From Yuukianura sp. NJ FZ-2021 (taxonomy: Eukaryota), in contig CM102285.1 of assembly GCA_046563655.1 (NCBI GenBank), forward strand, positions 5,332,001 to 5,396,000: a stretch of 64,000 bases of DNA. The letters run 5' to 3'. The position numbers were made by a program, and so were the translations under genes. This document shows, one piece after another, positions 1-62,148 of the stretch; position 1 is the first letter of the stretch; each line of letters opens with the position of its first letter. The notes below the pieces were generated by a model. That model had not been told where the DNA came from, searched no databases, and worked only from the letters and a program-made list of their open reading frames with translations.

Positions 1-350
1 ACTTTCTTCCCCAGCCAGTTGGGTAGCTGGCTGGCGTATTAACGACTTGTATAAAAGATTCACTGCTCTCCGCGCTTGGCGTAGGTGAAACCGAACGACT
101 AGAAATATTCCGTGAAGGAACGGGTTGAGGGACGGTGTGCCGTCACCTCGGAAATGGTGTAAATTTTGACCTAACCGCTTTGAGGGTGAAGTCGCGACCA
201 CTCGAGAGAGGCGATGACGTAGGACAGAGGTTTTTCTTCTACACCTGTCGCATACCCCGAGGAGCGAAACACAACGAGACTACAAACGAAGCAATGAAAC
301 AAATTACCGAACCTTGGCGGTTCAACCCTGTTGCAGGATACCTGGACGGT

Positions 351-1413
351 ATGACTCTACGGATGCTCCTTGTACTTTGCGTCGGGACGACGCTTGTTGC
401 AGAGGTCGCCGGGACGATGATGTGCCCATGGGCACTGGCGACACGAATTCGACGGAGTCCGGTGAACCCACACCGGTGGACCAAGAGGAACCTCACGTGG
501 ACCCTTGGACCTACCCCATATGACATGGACCGAGAAGAAGCACTGGCGCCAGCCTGGCGTTCGTGAAGTGGCAACTTTACTCCAACTTCACCTTTACTTA
601 CGTGGAGGGGAATGCTGATATCCCCATTACCTTCGAACACGGAATTCATGATGACGCTAGTGACGGACGTGGTGGCACACTAGCCCACGCCCACTATCCA
701 GCATCAGTTATGGGCGGACAAATCCACCTAGACGCCAACGAGACTTGGTCTCTCGGAGAGGACGACGAACACGTCAATTTATTTTCGGTACTCCTACACG
801 AAACGCCTTGGCCTTGCCACACACTCGTGCCATAGGATCTGTGATGACAGCCTGGTACCAGTTCTGGCCGCACGTTACCGAAACAGGAGTCCCCGACGAA
901 GAAGCTCTGAAGGTCCTATACCCACCAGGGTTCATCGACGAAGGGCCGGATGGAGAAAATATCCGAGGCCTGAGTACACTGTGGTACGACCATGTTGGTT
1001 ATCTCAATGGGGACCACCTCCTGTTCCACGGGAAAAGTCACGTTAGAGTTACAGGAGCTGGGACACTACTTCCTACTCCAGTGCAGAATGGCGATTTCTT
1101 CGAGGACTTCCCGCCGGACCGCCGAATCAACTTCACAGTCGGCGTCACGAGTTACCTCTATGTTATGGTTGACGACCAAATCGGAGTATATTCATCAGAC
1201 GGCCACCTAATCACACCAGGACTCAAGCACCGAAGTATCTTTGGCATTACGCACCCAGTTTTGGGATACTTCCCGTCAGAACACACCCTCTGGATCAAGT
1301 TGACCACTGGATGGAGGCCGCTATACCTAGAGAAGGGCATGATACAAAATCGCCTTCGACATTGCCTTCATAATCGTGTCAAAGTTCAACGCTTTTGTCA
1401 TAGACCCTACTAA
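351..1413 (+). pseudogene. Intronless matrix metalloproteinase (M10A), frameshifted, inside an LTR element
   Basis: Joining ORFs 135-566, 563-835 and 745-1413 gives a hydrophobic signal (MLLVLCVGTTLVAEVAG), an RIRR furin-like site, RWTKRNLTW, KWQLYSNFTF..ADIPITF, DGRGGTLAHAHYP, GGQIHLDANETW, NLFSVLLHE, ALALPH and the Met-turn SVMTAWY. A possible hemopexin-like segment follows. There is a frameshift near 545-565 and a deletion inside the HExxHxxGxxH motif near 803. Confidence 0.85.
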
Positions 1414-2320
1414 CCCGGACACGCACGAGCCGCTACAAAACTTGTACAAATCCACGGCGGTCGTTAAGTTATGTTACCGTGGAGGAAACCAACTGAAATG
1501 GATAGAGAGGGATTTTGGAGTAATCCCAATCGGAGAGATTGATATTGAAACTATACGCCTACACACCGACAGTCTGCCGTGTCACGCGTCACCGACGCAA
1601 ATTCGGAACAAGTTCCTTTCAACACTTGAGCTGCCCTTGGGATTTCCACACGCTGTTCCAAATTTGGATGTTAACGCTATGAAAACTGTGGTCGTAACAA
1701 TTGTGAAACTTTGGGGTGACATCTCCGAGCAATTACACAACCTGGACACTCTGGAAATTCAGGCCCTGATTCAGAAGATGCTTAACAGCACACACGAGCA
1801 AACTGCAGACCAGTTCCGGCTGACTCATTTCTTTACGCATGTTTCGGTACTCAACGTCAAGGATACAAGGATCCGACTAAGCCTAATTTCCGTGGCCCGG
1901 CAGCTCAATCTGACAACAACCGTATTTTGTCAGGACTAAGAGACTTGGAAAACAGAGACGGAGGCAGAATTTTTGCGAGAACTACTGCAGAAAGTCCGAA
2001 CCTTGTCGCGATCGGATGGATTGGACCCAGTACAACATGCATTAATAGTTCCACACCTCGCCGCGTGGTGGCGTGATTGCCGAGTGCGGCCTGAAACCGT
2101 CACGAGGCCTGTTGTAGTACCACGCCGGGGCCCGTATGCAACGCCCATTCGCCCCACCAGTGCCCGCACGCCACCACCAAACGACGCCAGACACCCCACC
2201 ACCGCTCCACCATCCCTCATGTCACGGATCCACGCATTGGAGCAACAACATCTGGAGCTCAGCCGCCCTAGGTCCGAAAGGAGGCTTTTCGAGCTTTTGT
2301 CGGGACGACAAAAAAAATAG
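1343..2320 (+). pseudogene. Rrp6/RNase D (DEDDy)-like accessory ORF, copy 1, one premature stop at 1937-1939
   Basis: ORFs 1376-1939 and 1973-2320 are in the same frame and colinear with the ORF at 7340-8239 (QD*ETWK vs IDYDAWR). Motifs are KIAFDI, AFVIDP and LYKSTAVVKLCYRGGNQLKWIERDFGV. Confidence 0.6.
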
Positions 2321-2331
2321 GCGTTGGAGAG

Positions 2332-2548
2332 TGTTGCAGCAGTATTAATTCAAGATTTATTTTCACAACTTACTTTCACTAAGCCAAGGTCACACGTACA
2401 CTTAGTCACTTAGTCGCTAAGGGACCCCAGCACTTGTATTTAGTCACTAAGCAGGAAGTGTTAAAGCAAGGCCAGGTAATTAAAACAAAACCGCAAGGCC
2501 AACTTGATTAATGAATTAGCCCAATTAAGCCGACCACAGCCGCCGCTA
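2332..2548 (+). mobile_element. Truncated 3' LTR (family A)
   Basis: Starts TGTTGC right after GTCGGGACGA...GGAGAG (gypsy-type pre-LTR/PPT region). Contains the shared core AAAACCRCAAGGCC..TTAGCCCAATTA..CCACAGCC. Confidence 0.75.
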
Positions 2549-2824
2549 TATTGAAATTAAAATATGAAAATTTTGAGGAACATTACAGTGGATTCGCTTG
2601 AACTGAAGACGGAAAATGAGAACAGAAGAAAGACAACGGACACACAGGATGTGATAACACCCTTCTTAAAATTTAAGCTGAGACAATGTTTATTCGTTAG
2701 GGAGTGTGAGGGCCAGAAAATTCTCCCTCACCAACTTCCCTCCCCCCATCATAGATTAGGCTAAGTCACCGTACAAACCAGATTGGCAATAAATGAGACA
2801 GCCAGCATTTGCACAGCAACTTAA

Positions 2825-2920
2825 CAAGTACCAACGTTCCTCGGCTGTACTGAGTACAACCGCCGCTTCATCAAGAACTATAGCCAAATTGCTAAACCCC
2901 TGACCGAGCTCACCAAAGGT
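2825..2920 (+). mobile_element. Ty3/gypsy reverse transcriptase thumb fragment
   Basis: Translates [30 protein letters not shown], matching the gypsy FLG..YYRRFI..A.PL..L motif. Confidence 0.8.
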
Positions 2921-5687
2921 GCTTTAGGAGTAGCTAGATTGGACGGAATTATGTGACTAGCCCGGTCTAAAGTTCATTTGAAAAATCGGACACCTGCACA
3001 AAATCCCTTGATTGATCATTTCCTGAACGTCATCTAGGTCACATTAATTAGTCATTTCCTAACTATCAAACCTCCAATTTTTTAAAATGGATGAAAACCC
3101 GCCAAAACGCGTGAAAAAAAATGCCTGGGTAAACAACAACTTTCTCGCCAAAAATACATGCGTCACTAAAAATTATTCCATGCACTAAACCATAAATTAA
3201 ACCTTTTAATTCCAATTAGTCATTTCCGGTCTTACCTAACCATTACCGGTAACTGAAGGTCACAAAACAAAAAATCACTAATTTGTTCGGGAGAAATTTT
3301 GAATTTTTTTTATGTGGCAGGTCAAATTTCTCCGAATCAAGGTCATTGAAGGTCAAAAATGAGCTTGAAATTTATTAAGTTTTCTTTTTGTTAAAATTTA
3401 AGCCGGTTAATGTGTCATGAAATTGGTCTAATTGGTCTAATTATGGGTTAATTAAAAGTTCCATCGAAAAAGGACAAACAAACAGTTTTAGTTTAACCTT
3501 TGACAATTAGAAAACAATTAGAAAACTGTCATAACTTTGACAGCGTTAACTTTGGAGAACGTTTTATAGAGTCTCACTTGGCATACAAGTTTTCAAAACA
3601 TAAAACAATAGTTTTTGTTAAGGAAGGACAGTCTGACACCTCTTCCGACTCAAGTGATGAAGCCGATGGAGGGCTTACAAGACGCTATTGGCGTGCACAC
3701 ATTAAGCCCATACCCTACCTACGTCCAAGGACAGCGGGAATCCGAAAAGCATTACAAACGTAAAAATTAAATGTAACTCTGTCATAAGGTTTTATATTAT
3801 TTCTTTTATTTGTTAGTTCCTGCACATTCAGTCACACAATCATCATCATGATGCTGAGTATGGGGTGGAGGGAAGGTCACCCTATTGGAAAGCAAGAGAA
3901 TGGCTACGCTATCCTGTAAGAAATAAACAAATCAGTTTAAAAATTCATTCTTTGGTTATAATTTCCAAATTTACCGGAATTATAGTGTTGGTATTTTCTA
4001 GATCAACACGGCCGGTGGAGAGAAATAGGGAGAGTATTTGTATGGACGCGGCTTCGGAGCGCAGGAGTAACTTTTACATCAGTCACAATCTGTAATTCTT
4101 TTTTAGCACATATTCTTGTCAATATTTTTGTTGTAACTTCTGTTAATGAATCCATCAAGGTCGTTGAACAAATGATATGAAATCAATAAACATTTTGAAG
4201 TTTTATGCGTATGTACTTTTTAAAACTGTTCTTTGAAAACAATAATTTATATTTGGTCAATTCCACTTTTCTCTTCGTAAAATTCGAAGACATGTAATCC
4301 CCTGTGCAATCATAGGATCTTCCCTCATCTAAAATTTTTGAACATATGAAGAAAAAAAATATTCTTAGTATACAAGCATTTTTTCGAACGTCTAAACTCA
4401 ATTAGCGATTTCCTCATTACAAAGCATTTTACTAGAGCTTGAACTCAATTGGCGATTTCCTTATTATAAAACATTAATCGAATTAAGCTGATCCTATTTA
4501 ACTCAGAACAAAATTGAATTTTCACACATTCAAATTCTAATATGTACATCACTTCAATTTGTTGCCTCTACTATTGGAGTTGTGACCTTTAGGCTCTAAA
4601 GCGTTTTTGTACTGTTGTTGAACCAATAGATTACAATTCCATCATAGAGGATTCATCATCTGGATTCAACATTTTGGAAATTAGGACTTAAACAAGAACT
4701 CTACATTATCATTACTCAATTGTCCTTAAAAGTTATTTTAAAATTTAAGACTGTTGATTACAACGATAATACAAATATTAACTACAATCCAGTTGTTTCG
4801 CAAAAATAGCGGAAAAGCGCCGTATGGACTGAATTCGTCCCAATAATCTCACAGATTATACTTTAAAAATAATCTATGTAATAACAAATTCATTTAATAG
4901 TTTTACATGCTAAATCTCAATGCCAGAATGTTCGAGAAAAAAAATTTGTTTTATTTGTTAAATCTCCATGCCCAGGTGTTTGAAAAAATATATATTAAAT
5001 TCTGATAAGTACTACAGTACAATTGGTGTTTTTACAATCTATGGCACAGTTGTACTTATTAGAATTTGAAAAAAGAATCACCATAATTATTCTAAAAAAC
5101 CGTAACCGTTAATTCGTATACCTAATTTTATGTAAATTGGAAACTGTTACATTTACGCTTGTTCTAATACCATTCACAAGCTAACAACTACTACTACTTA
5201 CTGAAAAGTCTGAAACAGGAACATTTTTACCAAAAAGCTCATTTCTTTAGAATAAAATCTTAAGTATTTCCGATACTACAAATGTCTTAATTAGACATAA
5301 TTTATTGAAACTCGTGCAAAGTCATGTAATTGAAGGAAAGTTACAAAAAAAAGAAAACAGTGAAAGGTCAAGTGAAGTGAACACTTGGAATTTTTTTCAA
5401 CTCCATAAACGCTCTCTTCATAACAAAAAATCAACTTTTCCCGCCAAATTTAATAGTTCATGTTTAAGTGTCAGTTTTTAGGTTTTAAATGACGTTACTG
5501 CTGTTCAAGAATGGAAAAAACGTTTACAATAGATTCATTTTACTTTTTACCAAAATAAATTTTCAAAGAATGGAAAAAAGTTCACAATAGATTCATTTTA
5601 CTTTTTACCAAAATAAATTTTCCAAAAAAATAAAGCAAAAAGAAGAAAGTCATTTTTTTTTAAATTTCAGTAGTGGATGATTCGAAA

Positions 5688-6278
5688 TGTTGCATCAGTA
5701 ACTAGTAATTTTGTTGCACTTTCACTTCACAATGTCAAGGTCGCACATTCACCACTTAGTCACTAAGCACAGTTAGTCACTAAGAGGAAACAGAACCAAG
5801 GCCTATTCTATTGAAGGGAAAACCACAAGGCCAATTCTATTAGCTAATTAAGCCCAATTAGCACAACCACAGCCAGCGCCGCTAATGCGGTTTATGACCG
5901 AATTCTCTTGTAAAAACCACTCTAATTAGACACCTCCAATCTAGGCAATTTAGAATTTCAGTTAAATAGCCGGGAAATGCAGTGTAGAAAGTAAGTCAGT
6001 AAGCCAGTAAACAAAAGCTAAGCAGAGAAAGGAAGACTAGAGAAGGAAGCCGGAAGCACTAGCACTAAAAGTACTTAGACCAATAGAGAGCACAGTTCAG
6101 AAAAATCAGCAACCAGAGGTATGAGTACACACAAATGTAAACATTTATTTATTTGCACTCCACGACTAAGACGAACTCACGCCAAGATTGGGGCCTTAAG
6201 ACCCTTGACCCCTCCGGGAACATTCGCTGACCCTGTGGGCACTTCTTTATTGACATACGTTAAAATCTCAACGTAACA
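5688..6278 (+). mobile_element. Complete 5' LTR (family A)
   Basis: TGTTGC...CGTAACA ends, family A core, CCTTAAGACCCTTGACCCC block shared with the other LTRs, followed by a PBS. Confidence 0.85.
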
Positions 6279-6280
6279 AT

Positions 6281-6294
6281 TGGTGCATTTGCCG
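6281..6294 (+). promoter_or_regulatory. Primer-binding site complementary to the tRNA-Gly 3' end
   Basis: TGGTGCATTTGCCG lies 2 nt after the LTR end and matches 13/14 to TGGTGCATTGGCCG, the complement of the typical animal tRNA-Gly(GCC) 3' end. Confidence 0.75.
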
Positions 6295-6653
6295 ACATGC
6301 CCTCTACTGCTGTTTTCTCTTTCTTTGAATCAATAGTCACTATTGTTGTAAACTTTAGTTACTGTAACTATACCTTAAATATGATGAATGAATGCGTGTG
6401 TGAATAACATAACGATACAATAACATATTATAACAATAGCAGATTAGAACAATACCGACTGCGTCGAGTGAATTCCTACGACACCACATGCTACGAAGTT
6501 AACAAAGACTTGGAACTCTCCCCCCTCTGGTGAGCAAGAGGTGAAGGGCATCGAACAGGTACTGTGGAGAAGGTGACCCTTGTAGAGGCGAAAGTCCTTC
6601 ACTGTTACCACATACGCTCTGCCGAAGGCCAAAGCTCACCTCATAGGGCAATG

Positions 6654-6760
6654 ATGATGATGTGCCCATGGGCGCTGGCGACACAAACTCGACGGACTCC
6701 GGTGAACCCTCACCGGTGGACCAAGAGGAACCTCACCTGGACCCTTGGACATACATCGTA
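6654..6760 (+). pseudogene. Fragment of a second MMP copy (N-terminal part)
   Basis: MMCPWALATQTRRTPVNPHRWTKRNLTWTLG, about 90% nucleotide identity to 414-520. Confidence 0.8.
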
Positions 6761-7339
6761 CAACGAGCGAGAACGAGCTCCTTAGTCAACCTTGCCGAGC
6801 GGATCGAGACGGAGTACGAGACGATCAACGAACTCCACCAGACCACCCAACTACCGGAAGCCCCACCGAGATCCTATTATGATTACCCACCACCAGAAAC
6901 AAGACCGGTTTCGTTTGATGTTGAGCCTAATACGGGAACCAGCACCAATTCCGACCCAGAATATGACTACAAAGAGCGCGCTCGACTCGATTGACAAACC
7001 CGATGACGAACCAGCGACAAATAACCGATACAAACTTGTTTTAGTTTTGACCTTCTCAAATACACAGTAAACCTCTTCAGCAAATTGGACGCTGGCATCG
7101 CATCACAACTTCGCTACTCGTAAACACATATCAAGCACGTCACCGACGGACAACGACTGGCTTGCCCTGAACGACTAGGAGTCCTCAACATTAATGAAAG
7201 CAAGGTGTACGACTCCCGTTGGATGCCAGACTGGCCCATACCGACATGCACCCCGGACACCTTGACAACGAAACGAGAAGTCGCAGACCACGCGCCGAAG
7301 CCATCGGAATGTTTCCCGTAGTCTTCTCGTGAACGTGGA

Positions 7340-8239
7340 GTGAATGCTTTCATCATCGATCCCCTGGATACCGACACCCACGAACCGGTGAGAGCCCTAT
7401 TCAAGTCACCACACGTCATGAAGATCTGTTACGGTGGAAAGATCCAGCAGCAGTGGATCGAACGCGACTTCGGAATTATCCCACGCAGCGTCTCGGACAT
7501 CAAACCGATTCGCATACACGTTGCTGATTTACCAGACCACGCTACGCCGTCCGACATCCGGCGATTTTTCGAGTCCGACGTAGACTTCATGTTCGGTTTC
7601 CTTCGCAACACTCAAAATCAAGACCGCGAACTCATGTTGGATGCCACCAAGACGGTCGCCTTACTCTGGAGGGACATCGACCGTTATTTACAAGACGGTC
7701 ATGCTTCTGGAGGAAGAGACATTCAGATGCTCCTGCAACAGATGCTCATCAGCACACACGAGCAGACAGTAGAGCCGTTCCGCCTCAAGCTCTTCTTTTG
7801 GGACACTCCACCAGTTGACTTTGGGGAGGCACGGATCCGCGCCAGCATTGTCTATGTGACATTGTGCCGCGCCATGGACCTACCAACCAGCCTGTTTCAG
7901 ATAGATTACGACGCGTGGAGAAACGGTTCGGACTATGCATTCATCAGTGGACTACAGCAGAAAATTTCCATGTTCCCGAAACCTGACGTGATGACCGAGG
8001 CTCGGCAACTCATTCCCCCGTTGTTCATCTGGTTCGGGACCGACTTCGGGATAGGCACGCGCCCAGCCGATACACACCCCACCGTACCCACCGCTCACAG
8101 ACCCAGACGCATGACACAATACTCCGCTACAAGTCGACAACCCCTCGCGCTTCGTGACCTACCGCCGCCTGCCGTTCCTATCCCCGATTTAGTACGACAA
8201 GTCCAGGATCTGCAGACAAGGATTCAGGAACTCGAATGA
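7340..8239 (+). CDS. Rrp6/RNase D-like accessory ORF, copy 2 (299 open codons, 5' part disrupted)
   Basis: AFIIDPL..LFKSPHVMKICYGGKIQQQWIERDFGI..SVSDI aligns by eye to Rrp6 DFIIDTL..DPAIVKVFHGADSDIEWLQKDFGL..NMFDT. It has a Pro-rich linker and a coiled-coil C-terminus, and ends just before the PPT/3' LTR. Confidence 0.6.
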   Translation: MNAFIIDPLDTDTHEPVRALFKSPHVMKICYGGKIQQQWIERDFGIIPRSVSDIKPIRIHVADLPDHATPSDIRRFFESDVDFMFGFLRNTQNQDRELMLDATKTVALLWRDIDRYLQDGHASGGRDIQMLLQQMLISTHEQTVEPFRLKLFFWDTPPVDFGEARIRASIVYVTLCRAMDLPTSLFQIDYDAWRNGSDYAFISGLQQKISMFPKPDVMTEARQLIPPLFIWFGTDFGIGTRPADTHPTVPTAHRPRRMTQYSATSRQPLALRDLPPPAVPIPDLVRQVQDLQTRIQELE

Positions 8240-8326
8240 CAGCGCCCTAGACAAGAATAAGTCATCACATCCGCAACTACCATTCATTGTATTGTCGGGA
8301 CGAAAAATAGATTAGGTCGTGGACAG

Positions 8327-9979
8327 TGTTGCACATGCACTTTGTTAAGTCAGCCTAAGTCAATTCACTTTCACTTTCACAATGTTAAGGTTAAAAACTG
8401 CACTTGGCCAGTGTCACTTAGTTGCCATCCCCGGAAACAATTCATGCATTAGAGACAAAAAGTAAAAACCGTCAGCATAACGTAGCTGGCTGTCCAAGGT
8501 TTTAGCGTCATATTGGCGCAATGCAAGTATCCGTGGAGGACGCCGTTTCAAAATCTTAAATATGATGCAATTCCGGAGGCGTCAAATTGAGGTTTGGAAC
8601 ATACTCCAATTTGACGCATGCAAAAGATAGAAAAAAAACTCTTCTCCGGAGTTTCGAACCAACAACCTTCACTTCTCTCTTATTGCTGATCTATCACACT
8701 ACAAACTAAGCTACGAATGATTTATTGAAAAACTAGTCGAAAGTTGTACTACTTATTCCATGCATTCGGAACTTAAAATTCTTACGACTAAAATCAAGAA
8801 AAAAACTTATAACCTGACATCAATTATGTGATTAATTGGTTAAGTTACGGTAAGTATGGTCACCTTTGTACACATACAGACAAAGTGACGTAATTATCAG
8901 CTGTCACCGGCATAGTTAGGTGGATTCAGCATCTCTACATGTGAGCGAGCAGTTTAAATGCTCTAAATGACACGGAACCATGTATGTCTTATTTGATTAG
9001 TTATAAAAATTAGCATCCAATTCGATTGTTAATTGGTCATGTGGGATACGAAACTATAAGTTTATCCGAAGTTTTTAGACGATGTTTGTCCCGCAACAAA
9101 AGAACGTGTAGCAATGACATTGGTTGTTTAGTGTTCTAATAATTGCGTCTGGAAGCTGTCGGGACGGACGCATCATATTGACTGAAGGAAGCTTCACTGC
9201 AATTTTACGCACTTTCCATGCAATACAAATCTTGCAATATTTGAATGATTGGAAACAAGCGTCAGAATCATGCAATTATAATTGCGCCTCTTTTGCAGCG
9301 AATCGAAGGCGTAAATTTGTGCGCCTCATTTCTGTCCTCACAACAACATGCATGCAACTAACTCAGTTTTTGCAGAAATATAACGCCAGGCTTACCCTAC
9401 TCATAATGATGCCAGCGTGAGCGCATCATTTTTGAATCAAAAATGTGTAATCGTCATTGTAATTCCCAAAACTGACGCAATGCTGACGGTTCATACCCAA
9501 AAATTGTTTCCGGGGATGTACTTATCGTTAGTCACTAACAGGAACAAAAGCAAGGCCAAGACGATTGAGATGGAAACCACAAGGCCAAACTTATTAATTA
9601 ATTTAGCACAATTAGCTCAACCACAGCCTCTGCCGGTAATGCGGTTTTAGGACAGAACCTACCCGGAAACCACACAAATTAACAACCCCCAATTAGGAAT
9701 TATGTTAAATACCCGGTAGTCACTGCTTAGAAGTAAGAAAGGTCAGAAGTCTAAAGAAGGCAAGGAACCAGCCCTACTAAGTACCCTAACAAAGCACAGT
9801 TACAGCAGCAGAAGGTATGGTCACACTCATTTATATTTACTCATTTATTTCAAAACCTTACACAGACAAAGGACGGACTCACGCCAGGAAGGGGTCCTTA
9901 AGACCCTTGACCCCTTGGGCAAGATGACTGTTGACCCCAAGGGCCCTTCCAACGGCATTACGCGAATTTCGACGTAACA
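8327..9979 (+). mobile_element. 3' LTR (family A) split by a DNA transposon
   Basis: TGTTGC at 8327 follows GTCGGGACGA..GGACAG. The LTR resumes at 9519 with the family core and ends CGTAACA at 9979. Confidence 0.8.
8426..9518. mobile_element. Non-autonomous DNA transposon (~1.1 kb) inserted in the LTR
   Basis: 17-bp TIR CATCCCCGGAAACAATT plus subterminal inverted AACCGTCAGCA. No clean TSD (TGC vs TAC). Confidence 0.8.
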
Positions 9980-12566
9980 CACATGAGGAGTCAAAACCAC
10001 AAGCACAAAATCAAGAAATTCTAAAAGTGCTATTTTGACAAAGAGTCTTACTAAAACCGCTAACACCAACTCCCTAAATTCATACCTTGTAAAATTATGT
10101 TTTGAGAAAAACTGCAGACAGCTGAAAATAAATTGGTAGAAAGTTTTGTAAAGAAAATTTATTAGAACTAGTTTTTTTCGTAAAATGATCAAAGCCACGG
10201 ACGAAAAATTAGTGTCATAGTATGTATAGATGTTTTAAAAGTCGTTAAGCCATAGCCATTTTTTTTAAAGATTCCATTTGAAACAATCAACGGATGCTGA
10301 TCGAAAGGGGAGGAGGATCGTTGGGAAGTAGGGAAGTAGGTAGTGGGAACCTAACCTGCACAAAATCTTTTAATTGGTCATTTCCGGTCTCTAAATTAAC
10401 TGACCATTTCTGGTGTACAACAAACGTCATAGGTCTAGGAGCAATAAGGCACTAACTAGTCATTTACGGTAGACCAAGGCACTTCAAGAGGTATATAAAC
10501 AGCAGAGGCTGGGATCTAAGGGTGTTGGATTTTCCCTATTCTCATCTTGTACGTTACCCTTTAACAATTACGGAAACCATAAAAGTATGATAACTGACCA
10601 GTTGCTGTATATCTGTAAGACATAGCGTCATCCTCTTTGGGATTTAAACTACAGCCCGATCAATTAATACACCGTTACTAAGAATTCCAATTCTCACGGC
10701 CCGTCCTTTCACAGGATATTTCATTGTCGGTCCCATCCATCATATTCATGTGATTCATGTTCGGCCGATGCTCGGATATCCTTATCCAACTTGCGTTGTC
10801 TTATGGTCGCTCATATTGGAGAGACTAACTGTCCTCTTGACTTCGGTCATCTTGGATTTTCTTCAGACATTTCTGACACGTCTCAAATAGTCATTAATAT
10901 GTGTCGTGGTTCTCCCACAGGAAGGAGAATTACTGCAAAAGAAACAAAACCCCTTCACAGGATTCAAGGGTTTTTCCCAAAATTCCACCAGTTCGGCTAA
11001 ATTCAATATTTGAATGTTAGCCGTCACATTTAAATGTTCCAAGTGAATTAAAAACAAAGTTCACAAGAGCATTTTCTGTGTTACCACTCAACACCCGGAA
11101 TTGCGGTGGTATAATTATCTTGTGGTTTCATTACTTAAAGGATTAAGTGGACATCTCGTTTCATGGTAGTGCCCAGAACGGTAGAAACCTTCCCTAGGCC
11201 TCCGGTTTTCTTAACAAAAAAAAAACGCGTACGTTAATTCGACTTGTAGACAAAAAGTATGCCTATGAGCGCATGCTTAATTTCATTAGCTACTTTTACA
11301 CGCACAAAAAAAAACTAGTGGGAGCTAGGGTTGATTATTTTAAGCCTATAAGTCCAGACACTCATCCAGTGGTCGGGAAATTTTCGTTACGTAGTTGTAA
11401 ATTTGTAAATTCTAGCAACCTCAGACAGCGAGGCATGAATAATGGGTAGTCGTACATTTCCTATTACGCCCGGTGTGAGTCGCCAGGTTCCCTGGGCACA
11501 TGGCACTCACGGAGACCTGGTAAAGAAATACAATACCCCCCAAATTATAAAAGAAATCACTTAGCATTTTTGCTTCATCTAACTATTGCAGGATGGTTAG
11601 GTTAACCTAACCTAACCTTTTAAGTCACTTATTAGTGGGAACGCCGTTCTTTACTCATGACTGGGCCGCGTTTGCTGGGCTATTTATGCAGAAGGCGGGA
11701 AATCCAATCACACTGGAAATGAATGCTCTTGTTAATCTTGTAAAGTTTGAAGTGCGGCGCCATAGGTGCGCTTTTTAGACTGAGCGGGTCTTGTTCGCGG
11801 GAAACCGACCATGGGCGTCGGTAGACGACAGACGACCAAGGTTATGCGCTTTAATACATAAAAAGAGTCTTGAGGAATTTCTAAGAATTAATGAAGTGGA
11901 GGCGGCGACTGTCAACGTTCATCGTTGGATAGAGGAGGAGCGAACCATCGCACTATCTGATAATGCAGCCGAAGGGGAGGAAATGGTGCCGGTATCATAC
12001 TCTCAAGTCTCTCTGAGACGGAGCCTGATTTAACACTTTAAAACAAATTCAATAAACATAATTCGAGTTCCTACAGGGAAATTATTAAAAACAAAAAAAA
12101 AAGGATTTTGCTGCCAACTGTATAATGCTAACCTGTTGCTTATCGTCTATATTTTTTCAAGACGTCTGGGATAATGACTGGTAAGCTACTTTTTAAATTT
12201 AATTCTGTGACTAATTTTTTTCCTCTTAGGAAACCACTATGAGGAACAGGTAGAACGTCTTCTGGGTGCAATGCTGGTAATGATCAACTGGAACGGTCCG
12301 GTTACTATGGAAGGAGTAACTGGTCTAACCTCACATACTACCGGGAACATCCGCAACACTGCGCAAAAGCGGTAACCTTTATCGCAGTTATTGGAAAACG
12401 GAATTGTGTGATGGGCTGTCATTCGACGAGCTTTTTAAATCACAAATTGACAACAGCCACACTTCCCATCTTACAATTTATGATGAGGCGGCAATGTTCA
12501 TTAAAAATTTTTTGGGTGAATTACTGCAGGAAACTTATGAAGCAAATAAATAAAAACTTAGTCCAT

Positions 12567-12960
12567 TGTAGCACCAGCACTTAGTTCACTCAATTGTTGC
12601 ACTTGAACTGCTCAACTTTCACTTAGTTACTAAGAGGGACTTACAACAACGCCAATTTCGTTCGGAGTGAAAACCACAAGGCCAATTGGCCACAAGGCCA
12701 AGTGATAGAAAATTATTAATTAATTTTTATCCAATTAGCAGAACCACAGCCAACGCCGGTAATCGGTGTAGGGACCAAAAACTGTTATCCTCTACCTGTA
12801 ATTAACAAGCACTTAGCAACCTTAATTGGCTAATTAAGCACCTAGCATAAATACTGTTCAGTCACTGCTTAGAAAGAAGAGAGGACAGAAGTCAGTAAGT
12901 CAGTAAGAGGACCAGCAATCAATACGTACCACTAACAGCTAAGTACCCCGGTACTTCACA
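12567..12960 (+). mobile_element. Truncated LTR (family A)
   Basis: TGTAGC start; AAAACCACAAGGCC, CCAATTAGC, CCACAGCC..GCCGGTAAT and GTCACTGCTTAGAA are shared with the LTR half at 9519-9979. Confidence 0.75.
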
Positions 12961-12982
12961 ACAAATAAACCTCGATTTAAAG

Positions 12983-14206
12983 ATGACACTGCGCTTAGAC
13001 AACAACGAGCCAATTGTTTACGTCAGAGCAAGTGAAATTCCAAAGAGCTCATTTTGCAAATTTTGGAGCAAGCTGGGCGGAGATTCCTAGTCGCCGGCTA
13101 TAGAAAACTTACGCGTGACAACCTACATCACTTTGCGCTTGGCACTGGGACTTCGGGGATTCCATAAAACAGCAACATGGAGCTGGAGCATCAGTTTATA
13201 TTTTCTGAAAATCAAGTATCATTATGGACCCTAGACGCCCGTCACCCATGGCAACGGTTCATGTCGTACGAAGATATTCGGAATACAATAATCAACATTT
13301 TCAAATACTATGACATTCTGAAAGAGCCCGAATTTGAATTGTTCAAGTGGACTAGTTACATGGTTATGGACAATGCCAGCTTTCCATTTCCGGCCTCGGT
13401 AGTATTTTAAGCAGTGCACAGTGGCTAGTTTTCATCAGTCTCAACTTGTGCTTCAAGATGGAAACACCTACTTCTTCTCTTCCTGTCCTCCCAATGCACC
13501 GTACCATTACCTCCAACAACCTTGTGAATAGTGAAAGTGAAAAATCATTTCCTAGAAAAAAATTTTTACGTCTAAATTCAAAGCTTTCAACTCTGCTGTG
13601 GTGGACGTCATCGATCAAGGCCGAACTTTTGGTTTCTGGTTTTCAGGGCCAAAACGTGCGCTTCCTTTTCCTTATGAAACTTGTGCCGCACTGTGGAACC
13701 TAATGATCACAACTTCAAAAAACCCAAAGCTTCTCGAGTCGAGAATGAATATGAGGATCATGGACATGGCGGCAATTGCGCCGAATTTGGTGGAATGTGA
13801 AAACGCCCTCGTCGTGTGCCCCAGACCCTACATCATGTTCAAGGCCATGAAAAAATTTTGATTTCCGGAAAAAAGTGGTGGAGTCTTTGACGTCATCCGA
13901 AACTATCGACTATTTACTGGAGAAAACGACGAATACGAGGAGTTTAGAGTTTTGGAGGAGGAGACGACTTTGGATGCAGTGATAGATAATTTCAAATTGT
14001 ACTTTGTGGTTTCAGAGAACATTAAAAATGTGCTCGGTAGCAAATTGGAAACTTTACAAAAAGTGTCTATTGTGATTATTATTCACTACGACCAAATCCA
14101 AGTTGATCAGGTTCACAGGCTGTACGAGAAATTCAAGGAAAAGTTGGTGTTCATCGGTCATCCCATACACAGGGGGACAAACGCAAAATTGGTCATTTCT
14201 AGTTGA
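12983..14206 (+). pseudogene. Decayed ~400-codon intronless ORF of unknown function
   Basis: ATG at 12983, then successive protein-like pieces (13177-13410, 13598-13861, 13952-14206). The last two are in frame across one stop. Confidence 0.45.
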
Positions 14207-15563
14207 TAAGTGTTATCCTGTTAGCACAAGCAAATTGCAATGAAATGTACTCTAGAATATTTTTTTTTACTTTTGTAGCCTTGTAAATTGATAAACTAAA
14301 ATTGAGCCTTGTAAATTTTGTCTTTTACTTGGTTTTGTTTTAGGATAATCCATTTTATATTCTAGTGTAGTTATTCTTTTCTTTTCAAACTTTCTGTACA
14401 GCCACTCACAAAAAAAAATAAAACCCAGCGTGGGCAAAACTGTGTTTGGCTTCAAGTTTATTTTTAACTTCTTTATAAAAGTTGGCGTTTGAATTTTTTC
14501 TTTGGATGGAGTCGCACACCAGAATATGTGCCAAAGAAACTTGCATTTGCGCCTATCTGTATGTAGCTTTATTGTCGTTTGTATTTTTTGGATTAATTTG
14601 GTTTTTCACGATTCCTGGATTCTACAGTGGCTGTGGCAATGTACGTTCCAATCACAGTTGATCCAGATCATCTTCATCAGCTAACACCCTCGCAAACTAA
14701 TCAAGCACACTGCATTAAACCTAGTTAGGTCATACGGTTAGGCTAAGCACTTGGTTATGCGTTGAGCAATTGGCAAGCAATAAATCAGAACATCTTAGCA
14801 CTCGAACTTAACAAGTTATGGTGCCGAAAGATGTTCCTAGGGAAATCTAGAGTCAATCGACCAGTGTTTAAAAATCGACTGACAGTGATGCGAGAACGGG
14901 TATGTCCAAAATCCACCAAAACAAACATATTTGTTTAAATTCTGAAACCACCCGAGTATCAAAAAGAAAATTAGGCATAACTTCGGATTTCTCCGAGGGA
15001 TTACATACATCAAGAACGAGTTCTGTCAGTTCCACACACGACGTAGATATCAAAAGTGCATCACATTCGGATTAAGATCCCCTAAGCTGATTCTGTCAAT
15101 GATCATAATCTCTTAGTCGAGAACCTTCCAAGTGACTCTCACCATAAGCTGACTACACTACTGTTTCCAGTAGATATTGATCAATTGATCGAAACACGAT
15201 TAGACAACCTTATCCTTGCCTTACGCGAATGGCAGATGCCCCACGAGTCACAATAAGAATTCCGGCAATGACGTCATTGATCGACCTTATGCTTAAACCA
15301 GCCCACGACCGGAACTACGAAAGCCAAACTGTTTTCTCTAGCTTAAAATCAGTTTTCAGCGAATCTTGACACGTCGGCAGACCACGACTCAATTTGACGG
15401 AATTAGCCAAGTCAAGGATGTGATGGTGTCCAAATTAATACCCATCATCTCACATTCAACTAACCCCGTCATAATCATCTGGAATGTTAGCCTTACGATG
15501 GGAATCAGGTTTTTACTCTACAAACAGCTGCTAGCCTATCTATGTATGTGTAACAAACGATAG

Positions 15564-15790
15564 TGTACCTAGCTAATAATGCGCACTATAATCTACTTAA
15601 GCTACCTGCACGCACGCACGGAAAAAAGACGCTAATTAACTAACGTAAATTAGAGTTCCTGTTTCGACAAGTTTATGCACCACAATTAACGGAAGAATTC
15701 GCTTAGCAACACCATCACCGCCAGAAATGATTTGCTAATTAAAAGCACACCATTGGTTTAATATATAATCCCCGTTACACCGGCGTTATA
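15564..15790 (+). mobile_element. LTR-like repeat fragment (family B)
   Basis: Homologous to 19530-19750: GCACGC..GCACGGA, GCTTAGCAACACCA and TATATAATCCC..GTT.CACCGGCG. Confidence 0.55.
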
Positions 15791-16115
15791 TATATATGTT
15801 TATTGGGGGGAGCAGTCACCTATATTTAGGTGACTGACTCACGCTGAGCATTCACTTATACGAAATATTTCAACATCAACCCCTTTAGAAACAGCGTTAT
15901 TTTTTGTCCTTTGTGACCAAACACTCATTATGGTAATCCAATTGCTATCATTATACGGAGGTCGTCCGTATTCTGATAAACAAATCAGATTGGATGAGTA
16001 TTTTTTGTCTATGGACTGGTTCAAGGAGTAGTAATTTGTAACCACCACAGACTGCGAAGCTCTTACCTGCTGCTCCAAAGGATTACAGACCTCTGACTCA
16101 AGGCCAGCTTGGTAC

Positions 16116-16350
16116 TGTAACACAGCAGGCAGTTCTTGCAGAAGCGGTCGCCCCAACACACACTCCTTTATCTTGGGGTGTCCACAGAGCAGCCCCAGGA
16201 AAAGAGAGAAGTCCAGCACTTGTCTCCCTGCTTCGGGACAGGGAGAACCCACGGCCTCGACTTCTTTTTTCCTTCCCAGGGGCTGGTTGCGAACTCACGT
16301 CGGCCAGTGGAAAAGCATTGACGGCTTAACCACTGAGCCAACTCGCCCCT
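16116..16350 (-). mobile_element. tRNA-derived SINE-like or LTR-like segment
   Basis: The minus strand reads GGGGCGAGTTGGCTCAGTGGTTAAG (A box) ... GTGAGTTCGCAACC (B box-like); the segment ends TGTTACA. Confidence 0.4.
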
Positions 16351-16843
16351 GCACCGGGGTTAGAACTTAAGTATATTCTGCGCCGATTATCAGAAAACAG
16401 TGAAAAGACACGGCAAATCAGCATGGGCTTTTAGCATACTGACAAAATACCGTCCTATATTGCTACTCCGCCAGTTTGAAAAACTCGCAATAATTTGCCT
16501 ACAACAGCTTTGTTAATAGAAGAAGAACACTTCTTTGTTGTGATTTAAACAAAAACTAAACCTTTTTTTTATAGTTTGTACGTATTATCCAAGGAAAGGC
16601 AAAGGCATCTAAGTTAAGTAACTATTTTTTTTATAAATTTCGAATTTTATTTTAATTTTTAGTCCTTGATGAATTTTTTTTTCTGAATCAAACGACGCTG
16701 GGAGTTTTGGATCAGTATATAACTTTTGTAATTACTTTTTTTTTAAGTCCATTTCCTCCAGCACACAAAAAACTGAGTTACAAAAAAAGAAAGTTGTTAC
16801 ACAGTATTTTTCAAAAAAACCATAAAATGGCTTTTCTTTTCAG

Positions 16844-17160
16844 TTTTCCGCGGAACAGAAGGTTGTTGACAATATAGTATGGCTATATAAATCAGTTGCA
16901 TATCCAGATTTTGCACGTGCTGACGGACGGTTTGTTACATTTAATCGTTTCGACACGGACTGGACGATGGCTGTAGGCTGTAGTTAACAAGTTTATCAAG
17001 TATGGATTTTTTGTTAAACATTCTTATCCAAAAATTATGTTACAATGTCATCATTGTGGGGTGGAATGATTCCATGTCCTACCAAACTACAAAGCTCGGT
17101 TCCGGCACAACGGGAGACTTTGCCCCCTCGTCACAATAGATTTTTGGACTCCACCAAATT
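16844..17160 (+). pseudogene. BIR (IAP repeat)-like domain, disrupted
   Basis: Removing a 7-bp tandem duplication (GGCTGTA, ~16969-16982) gives AYPDFARADGRFVTF..KFIKYGFF..LQCHHCGVE*FHVLPNYKARFRHNGRLCPLV, i.e. C-x2-C-x16-H-x4-C. Preceded by a pyrimidine-rich CAG acceptor. Confidence 0.6.
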
Positions 17161-17334
17161 AAATTTCTAATAGGAAATGTGGGAGAGACTGCAAAATATG
17201 AAACCAAATCCTTCCCAATGGAGCAGACGTATTGATTATTCTATACTTTCATGTTGCACTCTGTACAATGCATGCGGAATTGTTTAATTTAACTTTAATA
17301 TAACTTTACTTCCACCTTTTCCTCTGCCACGTTG

Positions 17335-17620
17335 TGGACTTCCCCAGGCAGTTGGGTAGCTGGTTGTTGTACTAGGACTTGTCTAGAGGACTCACTCGCT
17401 ATCCGCGTTCGCCGTGGATGAAACCGAAGACCGATAGGTAAATTTTCCGTGAAGGAACGGTTTCAAGGACGGTGCCCATCTCCTTGGCAACGGTGTAACA
17501 ATAAACCGGGCTGCAGTACAAGAAAGTCCCAGACCCTGCAGCATGCGATCGAAGTCACCTTGAGGGCGGAGTCGCGACCACTCAAGAGAGGTGATAACGC
17601 GGGATAAGAGACTTAGGACT
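17335..17620 (-). repeat. Internal block homologous to 1-235; probable antisense ORF relic
   Basis: Shared CAGTTGGGTAGCTGG, TTCCGTGAAGGAACGG and AGTCGCGACCACTC.AGAGAGG. Minus-strand translations are SRVITSLEWSRLRPQ vs SYVIASLEWSRLHPQ. Confidence 0.65.
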
Positions 17621-17756
17621 GAGGAAGCACCCAAACCCATAAAGCAATCCCACCAACGCTGCCACGCCCATGAGCAACTGGTGAGCGCTAGCCATTCCGC
17701 CTCCGAATACCCCATAACGTTCCACCGACGGCAACTGGGTTTTCGCGAGAAACGCA

Positions 17757-18322
17757 TGTTACACCCACATTTAGAGTACTTAGAGCACTAAGACACGAGG
17801 CACTTAGTCACCAAGCACTTAGATCCCAAGCAGCAAGTGTCACTGCAAGGAAATGTTAATTAAGGCAAAACCACAAGGCCAAATGTATTAATTAATTAGC
17901 CCAATTAACCTAACCACAGCCTCTGCCGGTAATGCGGTTTGAGCCTAGAATTTTCTAGTTAACCACAGCCCTTAATTGAGCAATTAGGAGTAATTAACAT
18001 TTTAGTATAAATGCGGAAGAGGAATTGTTAGTTGGTACCTCCTAGCTGTCACCCCTTGAAGCGCAGGGTGTGCGCGGGGGAGGAGAGGTCACGATGGAGA
18101 AAGGTGAACTGCACAATAAAAAGAAGAAATAAAAATTATAGTTTCACAAGTCAAAACGGCTTAGACTGCCACCCAGGTAACCCTTACATTTAAACAAGAG
18201 AGGAACTCAAAACCGGAAGGGGAGTCCTTAAGACTCTTGATTCTTGCCGTGACTACAACGGGACTCATGCCAAGGACCCATTCTTACGGGTAATTACGAA
18301 TGACAATAAATCAGACGTAACA
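17757..18322 (+). mobile_element. Solo LTR (family A)
   Basis: Perfect TGTTAC...GTAACA ends, family core, TATAAA at ~18007 and AATAAA signals. Flanks CGCA/CGCT are a possible 4-bp TSD with one mismatch. Confidence 0.85.
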
Positions 18323-18544
18323 CGCTCAAGACAAATTTCACCGGGCGATGGCAGAGAAGATAAAAATCCAAATAAAAATACAAGGTCAGGTTAGGTTAGG
18401 CTAACCTAACCCTCCTATACCGATTTGCCTCCAATCTATTCTGTTTCCACAAGAAGGGTAATGGACCAAACAGCTTCGAGAAACCCGGCCCGGGAAAGCT
18501 TATTACCACCGTATATTTTTTGCGCGGCAACAGGGTGAAACTCC

Positions 18545-20000
18545 ATTCTTCTTTGATAGATACTGATACCGCAGATTGCTTTATCCGAGTTAAGATGACA
18601 CATCACGGCGAAAATAATAAAATTGCTTTGTAGCAGCAAATATAAAAGACATCCCGGTGATGGTTACTACACGACGTTAGAGGTTTGTAAATCGCGACTA
18701 CTTTAGGAACATGTTCAATTTAACGTGTTAAAAGAAGTCGAGGTATGGACGAACCAAATATTTTCAACCTTGAACTTGACAAAGCCTTGAGGCTAGGTAT
18801 TAACACGATCCAGCGTGCGGCAAAGGTACCAGCGGAAACTCCTGATCCGTTTTCCTATAGTGCGACGACCGTTGGTGAGACCTTACTCGCGCCTTTTTCA
18901 ACAACAATGGTACATTTGTTCCCGTCTTCCCGGCGCATTCCATCAAGGGAACGTTGGCTTTTGAACCAAACAACCCTACACTTTGCTAAGCTTGGGATCT
19001 TTCCAAATGTTGCCGATATTCCAGAGGGAGATTTCGAACCATCAATAGACAAACCACCCATGTAAATTGTATATGGAAGTTAACATTGGAATCATCTCTA
19101 CGGTAACTGTGAGAGAAACAACCTCTGATAGCGGCATCCGTAGACAACGCAGTGCCACTACAATGCAACGCAATAACAAGGTAAATAACTACCCAGACTT
19201 AAGAACTGAGTTGCCGAAGCGTCTTAGGCGCTTCATCTTCAATTATACAGATGTTTTCGCATGGGATCTCGAGCATCTGAGAGAAGCAGAGGACGTTGCA
19301 TTTAGAATTGACACTGGGGACTGACTTCCAATTAGTTGGCCCCCATACAAGGAAATGCCAACTGAGAAGAAAATCATCGAAGACGATGTAAATAAGCTAA
19401 AAGGTGTCTACTAATTAAGTAAAGATTTTTTTTCCACCACTCATTTCTATTTTTACACGAAACGTTTTACGGTTCATGAAACTGTAACAAGTCAAAAGGG
19501 TCATTTAAGGTCAACTAGCTTAATAATATGTAAAGGAAAGTTGCACCCGCACGCGTGCACGGACAGGCCGCGGTGATGGAAGAAGACAATAATTAACCGC
19601 AGTTAATTCCCGTCTTCTATTTCGACCAGCTCGTGCACCGTAATTAAATTAAAAACAGCTTAGCAACACCAGCACCATCGTAATTAAATTAAGATGATTA
19701 ATTAAGGGCACCCAATTAGCTTAGTATATAATCCCCGTTCCACCGGCGCCACGGGCTAAGTCTTTTCTGGCGGTGGAAATTGGAAAAACACTCTTCACCT
19801 ACTAATCCAGCAACGATTAAATTCGGACATTATTTGCGCTGAGCAAGAAAAAAGGTTCTGAACACAAATATTACACCATTTTATTATTAGAACCTTGGCG
19901 CTAACACATCTTATTTCATAGCAAATAAAAAATCTCTTTACTTAGTAGACACCCTTTAGTAGAACTCGGGATTATTAAGAATAGCAAATCGCCATGGCCG
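18545..20000 (+). mobile_element. Ty3/gypsy pol remnant (protease and start of RT)
   Basis: LIDTDTADCFI (degenerate aspartyl protease), then YTDVFAWD..FRIDTGD*LPISWPPYK..EKKIIEDDVNKL, which resumes after the insertion as VELGIIKNSKSPW. Confidence 0.8.
19400..19956. mobile_element. Tc1/mariner-type non-autonomous element with TA TSD, containing a family B fragment at 19530-19750
   Basis: TIR AARGGTGTCTACTAA with TA on both sides. Excision restores the pol frame KL-VELGII. Confidence 0.8.
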
Positions 20001-42803: not shown

Positions 42804-58685
<15,882 letters not shown>

Positions 58686-60404: not shown

Positions 60405-62125
60405 TTGCTAGTTTTGTAAAAATAATCCTCGAAATTGAGAAACAGTGGAAAAATTCGAAGAATAAGGAGTCCTGACCCAGGTGAGGAAGCGCTGAAATGC
60501 CCAATCCATTACATTATTTAACAAAAGTTATCCGATGAATCAACTCGCAAATTCCCGCGAACAGAATCTACTCTTTAAGCTGCTAATTTGATAAATTTTG
60601 ATAAATAAAATTGACGGAATTTCAAAATACAGCGACAAAATTCACAAATTAACGAATCGTGGCCCACGTCACTAAACCCTGAAACATACCCTGCAATGTA
60701 ACATTTAGCCGCAATATTCCGACGCGACCAATTGCAAAGTACTAAATTACCCCTAGTTTCTATTACCTGTTAATTTTGTAAAAATAATCCTCAAAAAAGT
60801 TTCAAGAAACAGTGGAAAAATTCGAAGAATAAGGTGGGCTGACCCAGGTGAGGAAGTGCTGAAATGCCCAATCCATTACATTATTTAACAATAGGTATCC
60901 GATGAATCGACTCGCAAATTCCCGGGAACAGAATCTACTCTTTAAGCTGCTAATTTGATAAATAAAATTGACGGAATTTCAAAATACAGCGACAAAATTC
61001 ACAAATTAACGAATCGTGGCCCACGTCACTAAACCCTGAAACGTCGCCTGCAATGTAACATTTAGCCGCAATATTCCGACGCGACCAATTGCAAAGTACT
61101 AAATTACCCGTAGTTTCTATTACCTGATAATTTTGTAAAAATAATCCTCAAAAATGTTTCAAGAAACAGTGACAAAATTCGAGAAATAAGGAGTCCAGAC
61201 CCATGTGAGAAAGCGCTGAAATGCCCAATCCATTGCATTATTTAACAAAAGTTATCCGATGAATCAACTTGCAGGCTTACGGATTCCCATCAACAGAATC
61301 TAAGCCTTTTCGGCTGACAATTTGATAAATAAAGCTGGTGGATTTTCAAAACGCAGCGGCAACACTCTCGAATTAATGAATCCTAGCCGCGTCATTAAAT
61401 CCTGAAACCTCGCCAGCAATGAAACATTTAGCTGCAGTATTCCGATGCCACAACTTGGAAAGTACTAAATTACCCCTAGTTTCTATTACCTGTTAATTTT
61501 GTAAAAATAATCCTCAAAAATGTTTTAAGAAACAGTGACAAAATTCGAAAAATAAGGAGTCCTGACCCAGGTGAGGAAGCGCTGAAATGCCCAATCCATT
61601 ACATTATTTAACAAAATTTACCCGATGAATCAACTTGCATTCCCGCGAACAAAATCTACTCTTTAAGCTGCTAATTTGATAAATAAAATTGACGGAATTT
61701 CAAAATACAGCGACAAAATTCACAAATTAACGAATCGTGGCCCACGTCACTAAACCCCGAAACGTCGCTTGCAATGTAACATTTAGCCGCAATATTCCGA
61801 CGCGACCAATTGCAAAGTACTAAATTACCACTAGTTTCTATTACCTGTTAATTTTGTAAAAATAATCCTCAAAAATGTTTCAAGAAACAGTGGAAAAATT
61901 CGAAGAATAAGGTGGGATGACCCAGGTGATGAAGTGCTGAAATGCCCAATCCATTACATTATTTAACAATAGGTATCCGATGAATCAACTCGCAAATTCC
62001 CGCGAACAGAATCCACTCTTTAAGCTGCTAATTTGATAAATAAAATTGACGGAATTTCAAAATACAGCGACAAAATTCACAAATTAACGAATCGTGGCCC
62101 ACGTCACTAAACCCTGAAACATCGC
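60405..62125. repeat. Tandem repeat, ~360-bp unit, ~4.7 copies
   Basis: TTTGTAAAAATAATCCTC recurs near 60413, 60775, 61132, 61497 and 61853. The third copy is the most diverged. Confidence 0.95.
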
Positions 62126-62148
62126 GGCGATGGTCCCCTTCCCCACTA

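Follow-up and report, generated by a model that had tools for sequence, protein, structure and literature searches.

A probably non-catalytic domain of RNase D/Rrp6 descent in the last coding slot of LTR-retrotransposon-like elements from Yuukianura sp.

We have analyzed a stretch of 64,000 nucleotides (nt) from Yuukianura sp. NJ FZ-2021 (GenBank assembly GCA_046563655.1, contig CM102285.1, positions 5,332,001 to 5,396,000 of the forward strand), here called the window, with attention to two paralogous open reading frames (ORFs) near its start. It is probable, judging from the sequences, that these ORFs form the coding module nearest the 3' end in two members, deeply diverged from each other, of a family resembling long terminal repeat (LTR) retrotransposons, and that the N-terminal third of the encoded protein is derived from a DEDDy exonuclease and is itself non-catalytic. 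The window is animal DNA of about 40% G+C containing two islands of about 50% G+C (1-2400 and 6450-8300), each of which holds one copy of the ORF on the + strand. The frames and the segments of them that resemble an exonuclease are as follows.

1343-2320, + strand: copy 1, the paralogous frame, a single frame throughout with one in-frame stop at 1937-1939; it runs into a purine-rich tract
1379-1660, + strand: DEDDy-like segment of copy 1
7322-8239, + strand: copy 2, open from stop to stop, 305 codons plus the stop codon, with no internal stop
7340-7618, + strand: segment of copy 2 homologous to the RNase D/Rrp6 exonuclease domain (residues 7-99, corresponding to RNase D 50-124, from strand β3 to helix αC)

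An initial annotation of this DNA had placed the copy 2 ORF at 7340-8239. The open frame is real, but the GTG at 7340 is only the start assigned by the ORF-finding program, and the frame itself extends over 7322-8239. The chance of finding 305 open codons at this composition is 8e-6, and the same frame just 5' of copy 2 contains 5 stops in 109 codons. As the initial annotation had noticed, the two copies are alike as proteins despite their divergence as DNA. The proteins are identical at 82 of 188 positions in a BLASTP alignment (44%, E = 7e-50) and at 36% of positions over 305 residues in tblastn, whilst inside the ORF a nucleotide alignment could be made over only 59 nt (78% identical). Across the first 190 codons the proportion of synonymous sites that differ between the copies is at saturation (pS 0.77-0.79), compared with a proportion of 0.37 for nonsynonymous sites (pN), and identity at codon positions 1, 2 and 3 is 0.56, 0.68 and 0.38, respectively. 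The ratio of nonsynonymous to synonymous change (dN/dS), which had been proposed as a check on the functional history of the pair, is thus not near 1. Because synonymous sites are saturated while pN is only 0.37, we conclude from these comparisons that the two lineages diverged as working protein genes under purifying selection. The copies now present in the window both look like relics, defective as genes: copy 1 because of its in-frame stop and the broken matrixin gene that lies upstream of it (described below), and copy 2 because the head of the domain and an obvious start codon are absent.

No relatives of the ORF were found by a word-indexed search of a collection of 5.8 billion proteins, at near or longer lengths, or among metagenome and viral contigs, and PHROGs contained nothing relevant to it. 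Searches of protein collections also revealed no relative in the host or elsewhere, and a capture of the domain from the host EXOSC10 gene is not supported.

Both ORFs end just 5' of a conserved purine-rich tract, which is followed by a repeat starting TGTTGCA (at 2332 and 8327). The placement of each ORF in the last slot before a 3' LTR, remarked upon earlier, is thereby borne out. The elements of this arrangement, and of the corresponding 5' end of copy 2, are the following.

2302-2331, + strand: purine-rich tract of copy 1
2332-2560, + strand: start of the 3' LTR-like repeat of copy 1; likeness to other copies stops near 2560
5688-6278, + strand: 5' LTR-like repeat of copy 2, TGTTGCA...ACGTAACA
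6281-6296, + strand: TGG... tract of copy 2 resembling a primer-binding site, 2 nt past the 5' repeat
8297-8326, + strand: purine-rich tract of copy 2
8327-9979, + strand: 3' LTR-like repeat of copy 2, with the same ending as the 5' repeat (ACGTAACA), split by an insert
about 8429-9526: insert of about 1.1 kb with terminal inverted repeats (CCCCGGAAACAATT...) within the 3' LTR-like repeat of copy 2

Direct terminal repeats with TG...CA ends and a purine-rich tract preceding the 3' repeat, two features of LTR retrotransposons, are both found here. The family is multicopy, with 323 contigs from sequencing runs fitting at a likeness of at least 80% and, in run X1, a contig depth that sums to 436-952 per bin over 1-2800, where single contigs have about 57-67. 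The copy 2 ORF, by comparison, is near single copy at a likeness of at least 80% (depth over 7201-8400 of 75-100 versus about 57 in run X1). A run labeled as another organism (organism B) has both loci almost unchanged, with 3 differences in 713 nt at the copy 2 locus. The insert in the 3' repeat of copy 2 has a high depth in the sequencing runs, and contigs that skip it are present in 4 of 4 runs. Copy 2 is a derivative without gag-pol, and copy 1 is cut by the start of the window. The earlier description of the ORF as transposon-borne therefore stands as far as membership of a multicopy LTR-type family is concerned, but copy 2 is not accompanied by the genes of a complete element. Taken together, the repeats, purine-rich tracts and copy number indicate that the ORF occupies the final coding position, ahead of the 3' LTR, in an LTR-type element present in multiple copies. 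Since the two repeats of copy 2 are not flanked by a matching target-site duplication, an estimate of age from their divergence was dropped.

The sole trace of gag or pol that was found near the ORFs lies just past the truncated LTR of copy 1, outside the element. It is a 43-residue relic of a Ty3/gypsy-type reverse transcriptase (RT) thumb (FLG..Y.RRFI...S.IA.PL; 2825-2953, + strand), whose best matches among PDB sequences are Ty3 and foamy-virus polymerases (E = 0.09-0.8), with Ty3 first at E = 0.09. Further fragments of the LTR-like repeat are located at 12620-12770 and 17800-18240.

The first third of the protein, on the evidence of profile comparisons, descends remotely from an exonuclease domain of the RNase D/Rrp6 clade within the DEDDy superfamily. 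Copy 2 has one Pfam match only, to PF01612 (DNA_pol_A_exo1; E = 0.0012, 19.2 bits), in which residues 6-67 fall on profile positions 49-111. Copy 1 does not match PF01612, and its sole relevant match is to the NCBIfam RNase D family TIGR01388 (E = 0.0023, residues 15-67 on positions 46-98), which in turn is not matched by copy 2. The copies are only 44% alike, yet each of them matches the same stretch of the same superfamily in separate libraries. When the alignment of the two copies was compared using hhalign with a profile of 30 proteobacterial RNase D exonuclease domains, it matched at 89.7% (P = 1.8e-6), with residues 7-99 placed on positions 50-124 of the 215 in the template; the comparison with DEDDy-fold profiles suggested in the initial annotation has thus come out in favor of the relationship. 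Used singly, copy 2 matches at 86.7% and copy 1 at 61.1% (P = 8e-5), whilst residues 1-59 alone give 95.2% (P = 2.8e-8). None of 150 column shuffles approached the real score of 47.4 (best shuffle 23.4), and the reversed alignment scored 16.4. When all 63 window ORFs of at least 100 amino acids were compared in this way, scores of 44.5 and 34.8 were obtained for the two copies, while the highest among the other 61 was 21.7.

The nearest clade within the superfamily can also be specified. Profiles of the Pol I exonuclease (10 domains; P = 0.38) and of small stand-alone exonucleases (n = 10; P = 0.61) do not match the two copies, and both of these profiles match the RNase D profile at 98-99%. 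When PDB sequences were searched with the 61-residue core from copy 2, 15 matched at E up to 10; of these, 13 (the best at E = 0.026) are Rrp6, EXOSC10 or RNase D, and two are unrelated. The core of copy 1 gave four matches; two are EXOSC10, and the top match is an unrelated viral protein. The by-eye alignment to Rrp6 from which the relationship was originally proposed (FIID, K..G...W...DFG...D) is reproduced by both HMMER and hhalign. Rrp6 binds its cofactors and the exosome core through its N-terminal PMC2NT domain and its C-terminal region. Neither PMC2NT nor HRDC has a Pfam match in any frame piece of 1-2400 or 6500-8240, and on these two domains membership in Rrp6/EXOSC10 proper fails, as far as can be judged from the sequence. 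The label 'Rrp6-like' is consequently fair for the nearest clade, RNase D/Rrp6, only. An HRDC-like segment, which had also been suggested, was rejected given the empty Pfam result and hhalign comparisons of residues 100-305 with full-length RNase D, covering the bacterial HRDC only, that gave P = 0.29 or worse.

The residues to which the two catalytic metal ions are bound in DEDDy nucleases appear to have been lost, and the domain is for this reason most likely no longer a 3'-5' exonuclease. In the best register, which is given by both HMMER and hhalign and is backed by a W-x-x-x-D-F-G helix common to Rrp6 and EXOSC10, both copies have Gln in place of the ExoII Asp (residue Q42 of the 305-residue frame, codon 7445-7447 in copy 2). 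The ExoIII Y-x-x-x-D motif could not be aligned, there being a 21-column gap over W..RPL..Q..YAA.D in a permissive alignment. The ExoI D-x-E motif is absent from copy 2, whose frame opens after this segment and whose upstream sequence is unrelated. Copy 1 may have a vestige of ExoI at 1349-1369 (D-x-A as compared with D-T-E), placed there by hhalign with low confidence and across a 12-residue gap. The replacement at ExoII and the missing ExoIII motif had both been pointed out in the initial annotation, and its description of the protein as an apparently dead nuclease agrees with our finding that none of the ExoI, ExoII and ExoIII signatures is retained.

Two further features of the protein bear on the active site. 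The αB-β5 unit forms an internal repeat of 17 residues, such that residues ~42-59 and ~59-77 each align without gaps to RNase D 85-102. In addition, five of the six His residues and the only Cys (H20, C36, H66, H73, H127 and H146) are invariant between the copies, as against 43% of residues overall, a count that was made post hoc and on two sequences. This conserved His/Cys set may be a candidate metal site.

In copy 1 the ORF is directly preceded by a second coding sequence, which the initial annotation had overlooked and a small part of which recurs upstream of copy 2.

129-1413, + strand: matrixin (matrix metalloproteinase, MMP) gene upstream of copy 1, with its catalytic domain at 524-832
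6653-6754, + strand: 102-nt island upstream of copy 2, 92% identical to 413-514 at the start of the matrixin gene

The matrixin gene matches Pfam PF00413 (Peptidase M10) with E = 2.8e-20 and 73.2 bits against a cut-off of 24, and MMP-1 with E = 3.7e-12. By eye it has a signal-peptide-like start (ATG at 294 or 351) and, before the catalytic domain, a Cys and an RxRR site. In copy 1 the gene is spread over three frames, with breaks near 546 and 802, the latter within the zinc-binding motif, and it is exactly at these two breaks that other copies in the sequencing runs vary in length. Like the other parts of the element, the matrixin stretch occurs in multiple copies. In copy 1, the last of the matrixin frames and the DEDDy-like frame share 70 nt (1343-1413), and the DEDDy-like domain may be fused to the matrixin. 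The ~170 residues that follow the matrixin domain have no match in Pfam or PDB sequence searches; an identification of them as hemopexin, which was a by-eye impression, was not retained. A search for homologous proteins with the matrixin piece found no relatives. Our literature search returned genome surveys only and no account of a transposable element that encodes a matrixin or metalloproteinase, and the gene appears to be new for an LTR element.

The 102-nt island is the only upstream part common to both copies, and its identity is far above anything else between them. Two of its frames are open in each copy. No remnant of the remainder of the matrixin gene was found in copy 2 in any frame pair, and an exact 26-nt pattern from the island had no match. 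The island may have arisen by gene conversion, or it may be a cis element or a shared exon. An RNA structure was also considered for it and was unconvincing (z = -1.4 and -2.4, with differing folds).

A number of observations weigh against the interpretation of the ORFs as the last module of LTR-type elements encoding a remote, inactive relative of RNase D. Copy 2 falls below the PF01612 cut-off of 23.6 bits, and copy 1, at 17.2 bits, is far below the TIGR01388 cut-off of 298.95. A profile built from both copies has 0 matches among 1.84 billion representative proteins and nothing at E up to 10 among PDB sequences. About 55-95 of the 305 residues align to RNase D, and the remainder of the protein aligns with nothing. 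Neither copy has an ATG in frame where the domain begins, and copy 2 has none before residue 33. On the side of the element, the two LTR-like repeats of copy 2 are only ~84% identical in aligned columns (353 matches and 65 mismatches, with a shuffle mean of 283 matches), its flanks (CGAAA and CACAT) show no target-site duplication, and no match to RT, integrase, protease or gag was found in the 91 ORFs of 1-24000 or the 47 short ORFs of 2300-6700. Within the domain, an alternative register that uses the second αB-β5 unit puts an invariant Asp, D59, at ExoII; this register alone reaches only P = 0.04, and a doubt remains on this point. Finally, the domain of copy 1 follows a secreted-type protease gene, which is a poor fit to a role in nuclear RNA handling if the two form one protein.

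Some of these points would be accounted for if the ORF encoded a lineage-specific protein of unrelated fold whose 55-residue match to RNase D/Rrp6 is convergent or spurious, since the library matches are both under curated cut-offs, the two-row profile finds nothing in the PDB or among the representative proteins, and the rest of the protein is unaligned. We regard such a chance likeness as unlikely. The two copies, only 44% identical, each match this one part of the superfamily in a library independent of the other, the hhalign comparisons reach P values of 1.8e-6 to 2.8e-8 with clean shuffle and real-ORF controls, and the proteins have the W..DFG helix that is specific to the clade and common to Rrp6 and EXOSC10. 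It is likewise improbable that the domain is still an enzyme, acting through the shifted register or through a replacement His/Cys metal site of the kind proposed for Maelstrom (PMC2628886). The gapless alternative alignment of the duplicated αB-β5 unit, with Asp 59 at ExoII, and the invariance of the His and Cys residues both speak for retained activity, but no register supplies the ExoI Glu or the Tyr and Asp of ExoIII, the shifted register is weakly matched when taken alone, and the His/Cys count has the limits given above.

A different kind of explanation is that copy 2 is an exon retained (exapted) by the host, its frame kept open by host use and spliced to upstream exons. This would agree with the contrast between the fully open frame of 305 codons and the stops just upstream of it, with the modest likeness of the flanking repeats, with a depth near that of single-copy sequence, with the presence of the locus in the run labeled as organism B, and with an acceptor-like pyrimidine tract and AG that end at 7321. 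We nonetheless give exaptation a low probability. The frame has no start codon and is missing the first strands of the fold, a purine-rich tract and LTR lie directly 3' of it just as in copy 1, and the argument from age is weak because the repeats, with no target-site duplication, may not be a true pair. The explanation advanced in the initial annotation was that of a strict decoy, in which a dead copy of Rrp6 would titrate away cofactors of the exosome or protect the RNA of the element against nuclear surveillance. In its favor, the nearest solved relatives are Rrp6 and EXOSC10, catalytic residues have been lost from a protein that was nevertheless conserved, and RRP6 is described as being needed to silence heterochromatic repeats in Drosophila (PMC4577213). 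We consider it very unlikely, given that the ORFs have no Pfam counterpart of the cofactor- and exosome-binding parts of Rrp6, that no HRDC domain was found, and that the domain may be joined to a secreted-type protease. The matrixin neighbor and the defects of both copies make a nuclear decoy less likely than a role in the handling of the element's own RNA or ribonucleoprotein (RNP).

Returning to the interpretation that we prefer, of an inactive DEDDy-derived domain carried by an LTR-type element, the domain would have had a use for the element, because the protein was under purifying selection while the lineages diverged to saturation. We suppose that it served the element in this inactive form. 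What it did can be suggested only tentatively, and the proposal we favor falls somewhat short of being probable: the domain would bind, without catalysis, either the 3' ends of single-stranded RNA or complementary DNA or else a partner protein, to the benefit of the RNA or RNP of the element itself. Such a role would parallel those of EXD1, Maelstrom and the EXO domain of Egalitarian, and the protein would be an inactive counterpart of the rotifer ORF3 discussed below. The sequestering of exosome cofactors would be one possible form of this binding role, with the very low probability already assigned to the strict decoy. A still more elaborate proposal takes the env (envelope) slot of the element to encode a secreted, furin-activatable MMP, for crossing extracellular matrix, together with a dead Rrp6/RNase D-type domain with a His/Cys switch that would protect element RNA, either through attachment to its 3' end or through titration of exosome or PIWI-interacting RNA (piRNA) pathway cofactors. 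A two-part module of this sort is described in no retroelement, and we view the proposal as highly improbable.

The remainder of the window contains host genes and repetitive DNA. The genes recognized are the following.

20696-22515, - strand: host gene for an AMP-binding enzyme
28652-29182, + strand: host gene for a DM10-domain protein
47549-56347, - strand: host gene for a FAT-domain kinase, ATM-like by eye, with large exons and short introns

Within the AT-rich DNA that separates the two elements, a short ORF (3788-3916, + strand) has a G-patch match (Pfam PF01585, E = 4.1e-5) that is barely over the cut-off. A palindrome of ~600 nt at 36150-36751 is built of nested inverted repeats that are 96-100% complementary. 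Tandem arrays occupy 60412-64000, comprising a 357-nt unit in 4.8 copies and an array of a 77-nt unit; the latter has a higher-order period of 231 nt with 96% matches and reaches the end of the window. An Rfam scan of 1-20000 gave no match.

The accessory genes of retroelements are of interest in that they reveal the host barriers that an element must pass. Where the ORF3 slot is known to hold a DEDDy nuclease, the reports to date concern elements of bdelloid rotifers; there the catalytic residues are essentially intact, and the role is not known. If our interpretation is correct, a lineage that combines catalytic loss with purifying selection would argue that the useful property of these domains is binding and not cutting. 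An inactive DEDDy-derived domain would also offer a simple construct with which to ask what such domains bind.

The closest precedent is provided by the bdelloid rotifers, in which a DEDDy-type ORF3 is known from the LTR retrotransposons Juno and Vesta and from the Athena/Terminon retroelements (Rodriguez, Kenefick and Arkhipova 2017, PMC5408684; Arkhipova 2019, PMC6431247). As in the published account of Juno and Vesta, the ORFs described here are RNase D-like, DEDDy-derived and situated in the slot between pol and the 3' LTR of elements bounded by TG...CA. The rotifer ORF3 is, however, described as having 'strong homology' and intact invariant residues (DEDD being changed to DEED), and its role in the life cycle of the element is given as not known (PMC5408684). 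By that description it is set apart from the present ORFs, whose homology is remote and extends over about one third of the domain and whose catalytic residues are gone. The present copies differ from the rotifer elements as described also in having a matrixin gene upstream and no pol in the window. We therefore see the inactive DEDDy-derived accessory domain as a variant of the DEDDy ORF3s already known before a 3' LTR. DEDDy domains are encoded by DNA transposons as well, since the Dada transposases contain a DEDDy exonuclease domain with all four catalytic residues conserved (Kojima and Jurka 2013, PMC3706591). Dada and the present ORFs are alike in being transposon-encoded, but according to that report the Dada domain is embedded in the transposase of a DNA transposon and is catalytically intact.

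Among cellular proteins, Rrp6/EXOSC10 and bacterial RNase D give the best sequence matches and have the colinear order β3-αA-β4-αB-β5 and, in the Rrp6 type, the W-x-x-x-D-F-G helix in common with our ORFs. The latter differ from them in the absence of ExoI (copy 2), the Gln at ExoII, the missing ExoIII, HRDC and PMC2NT, the 17-residue internal αB-β5 repeat, and scores that lie under the family thresholds. Reuse of the exonuclease fold for binding has precedents in host proteins. EXD1 and Maelstrom are inactive DEDD-derived proteins that bind RNA (as cited in PMC5408684). In Maelstrom the acidic residues are swapped for a His/Cys set, for which an 'active site switch' was proposed (PMC2628886), and the conserved His/Cys residues of the present ORFs recall this arrangement. 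For the EXO domain of Egalitarian, the closest structural relative is RNase D, and RNA binding is reported to be independent of the active site (bioRxiv 10.1101/2025.08.03.668247). No sequence relation of the ORF to EXD1, Maelstrom or Egalitarian was found, and all three are, by these accounts, host genes, with Egalitarian keeping its DEDDy residues. The likeness is thus one of a fold reused, in those proteins, for binding, which is the use that we tentatively propose for the domain carried by the Yuukianura elements.

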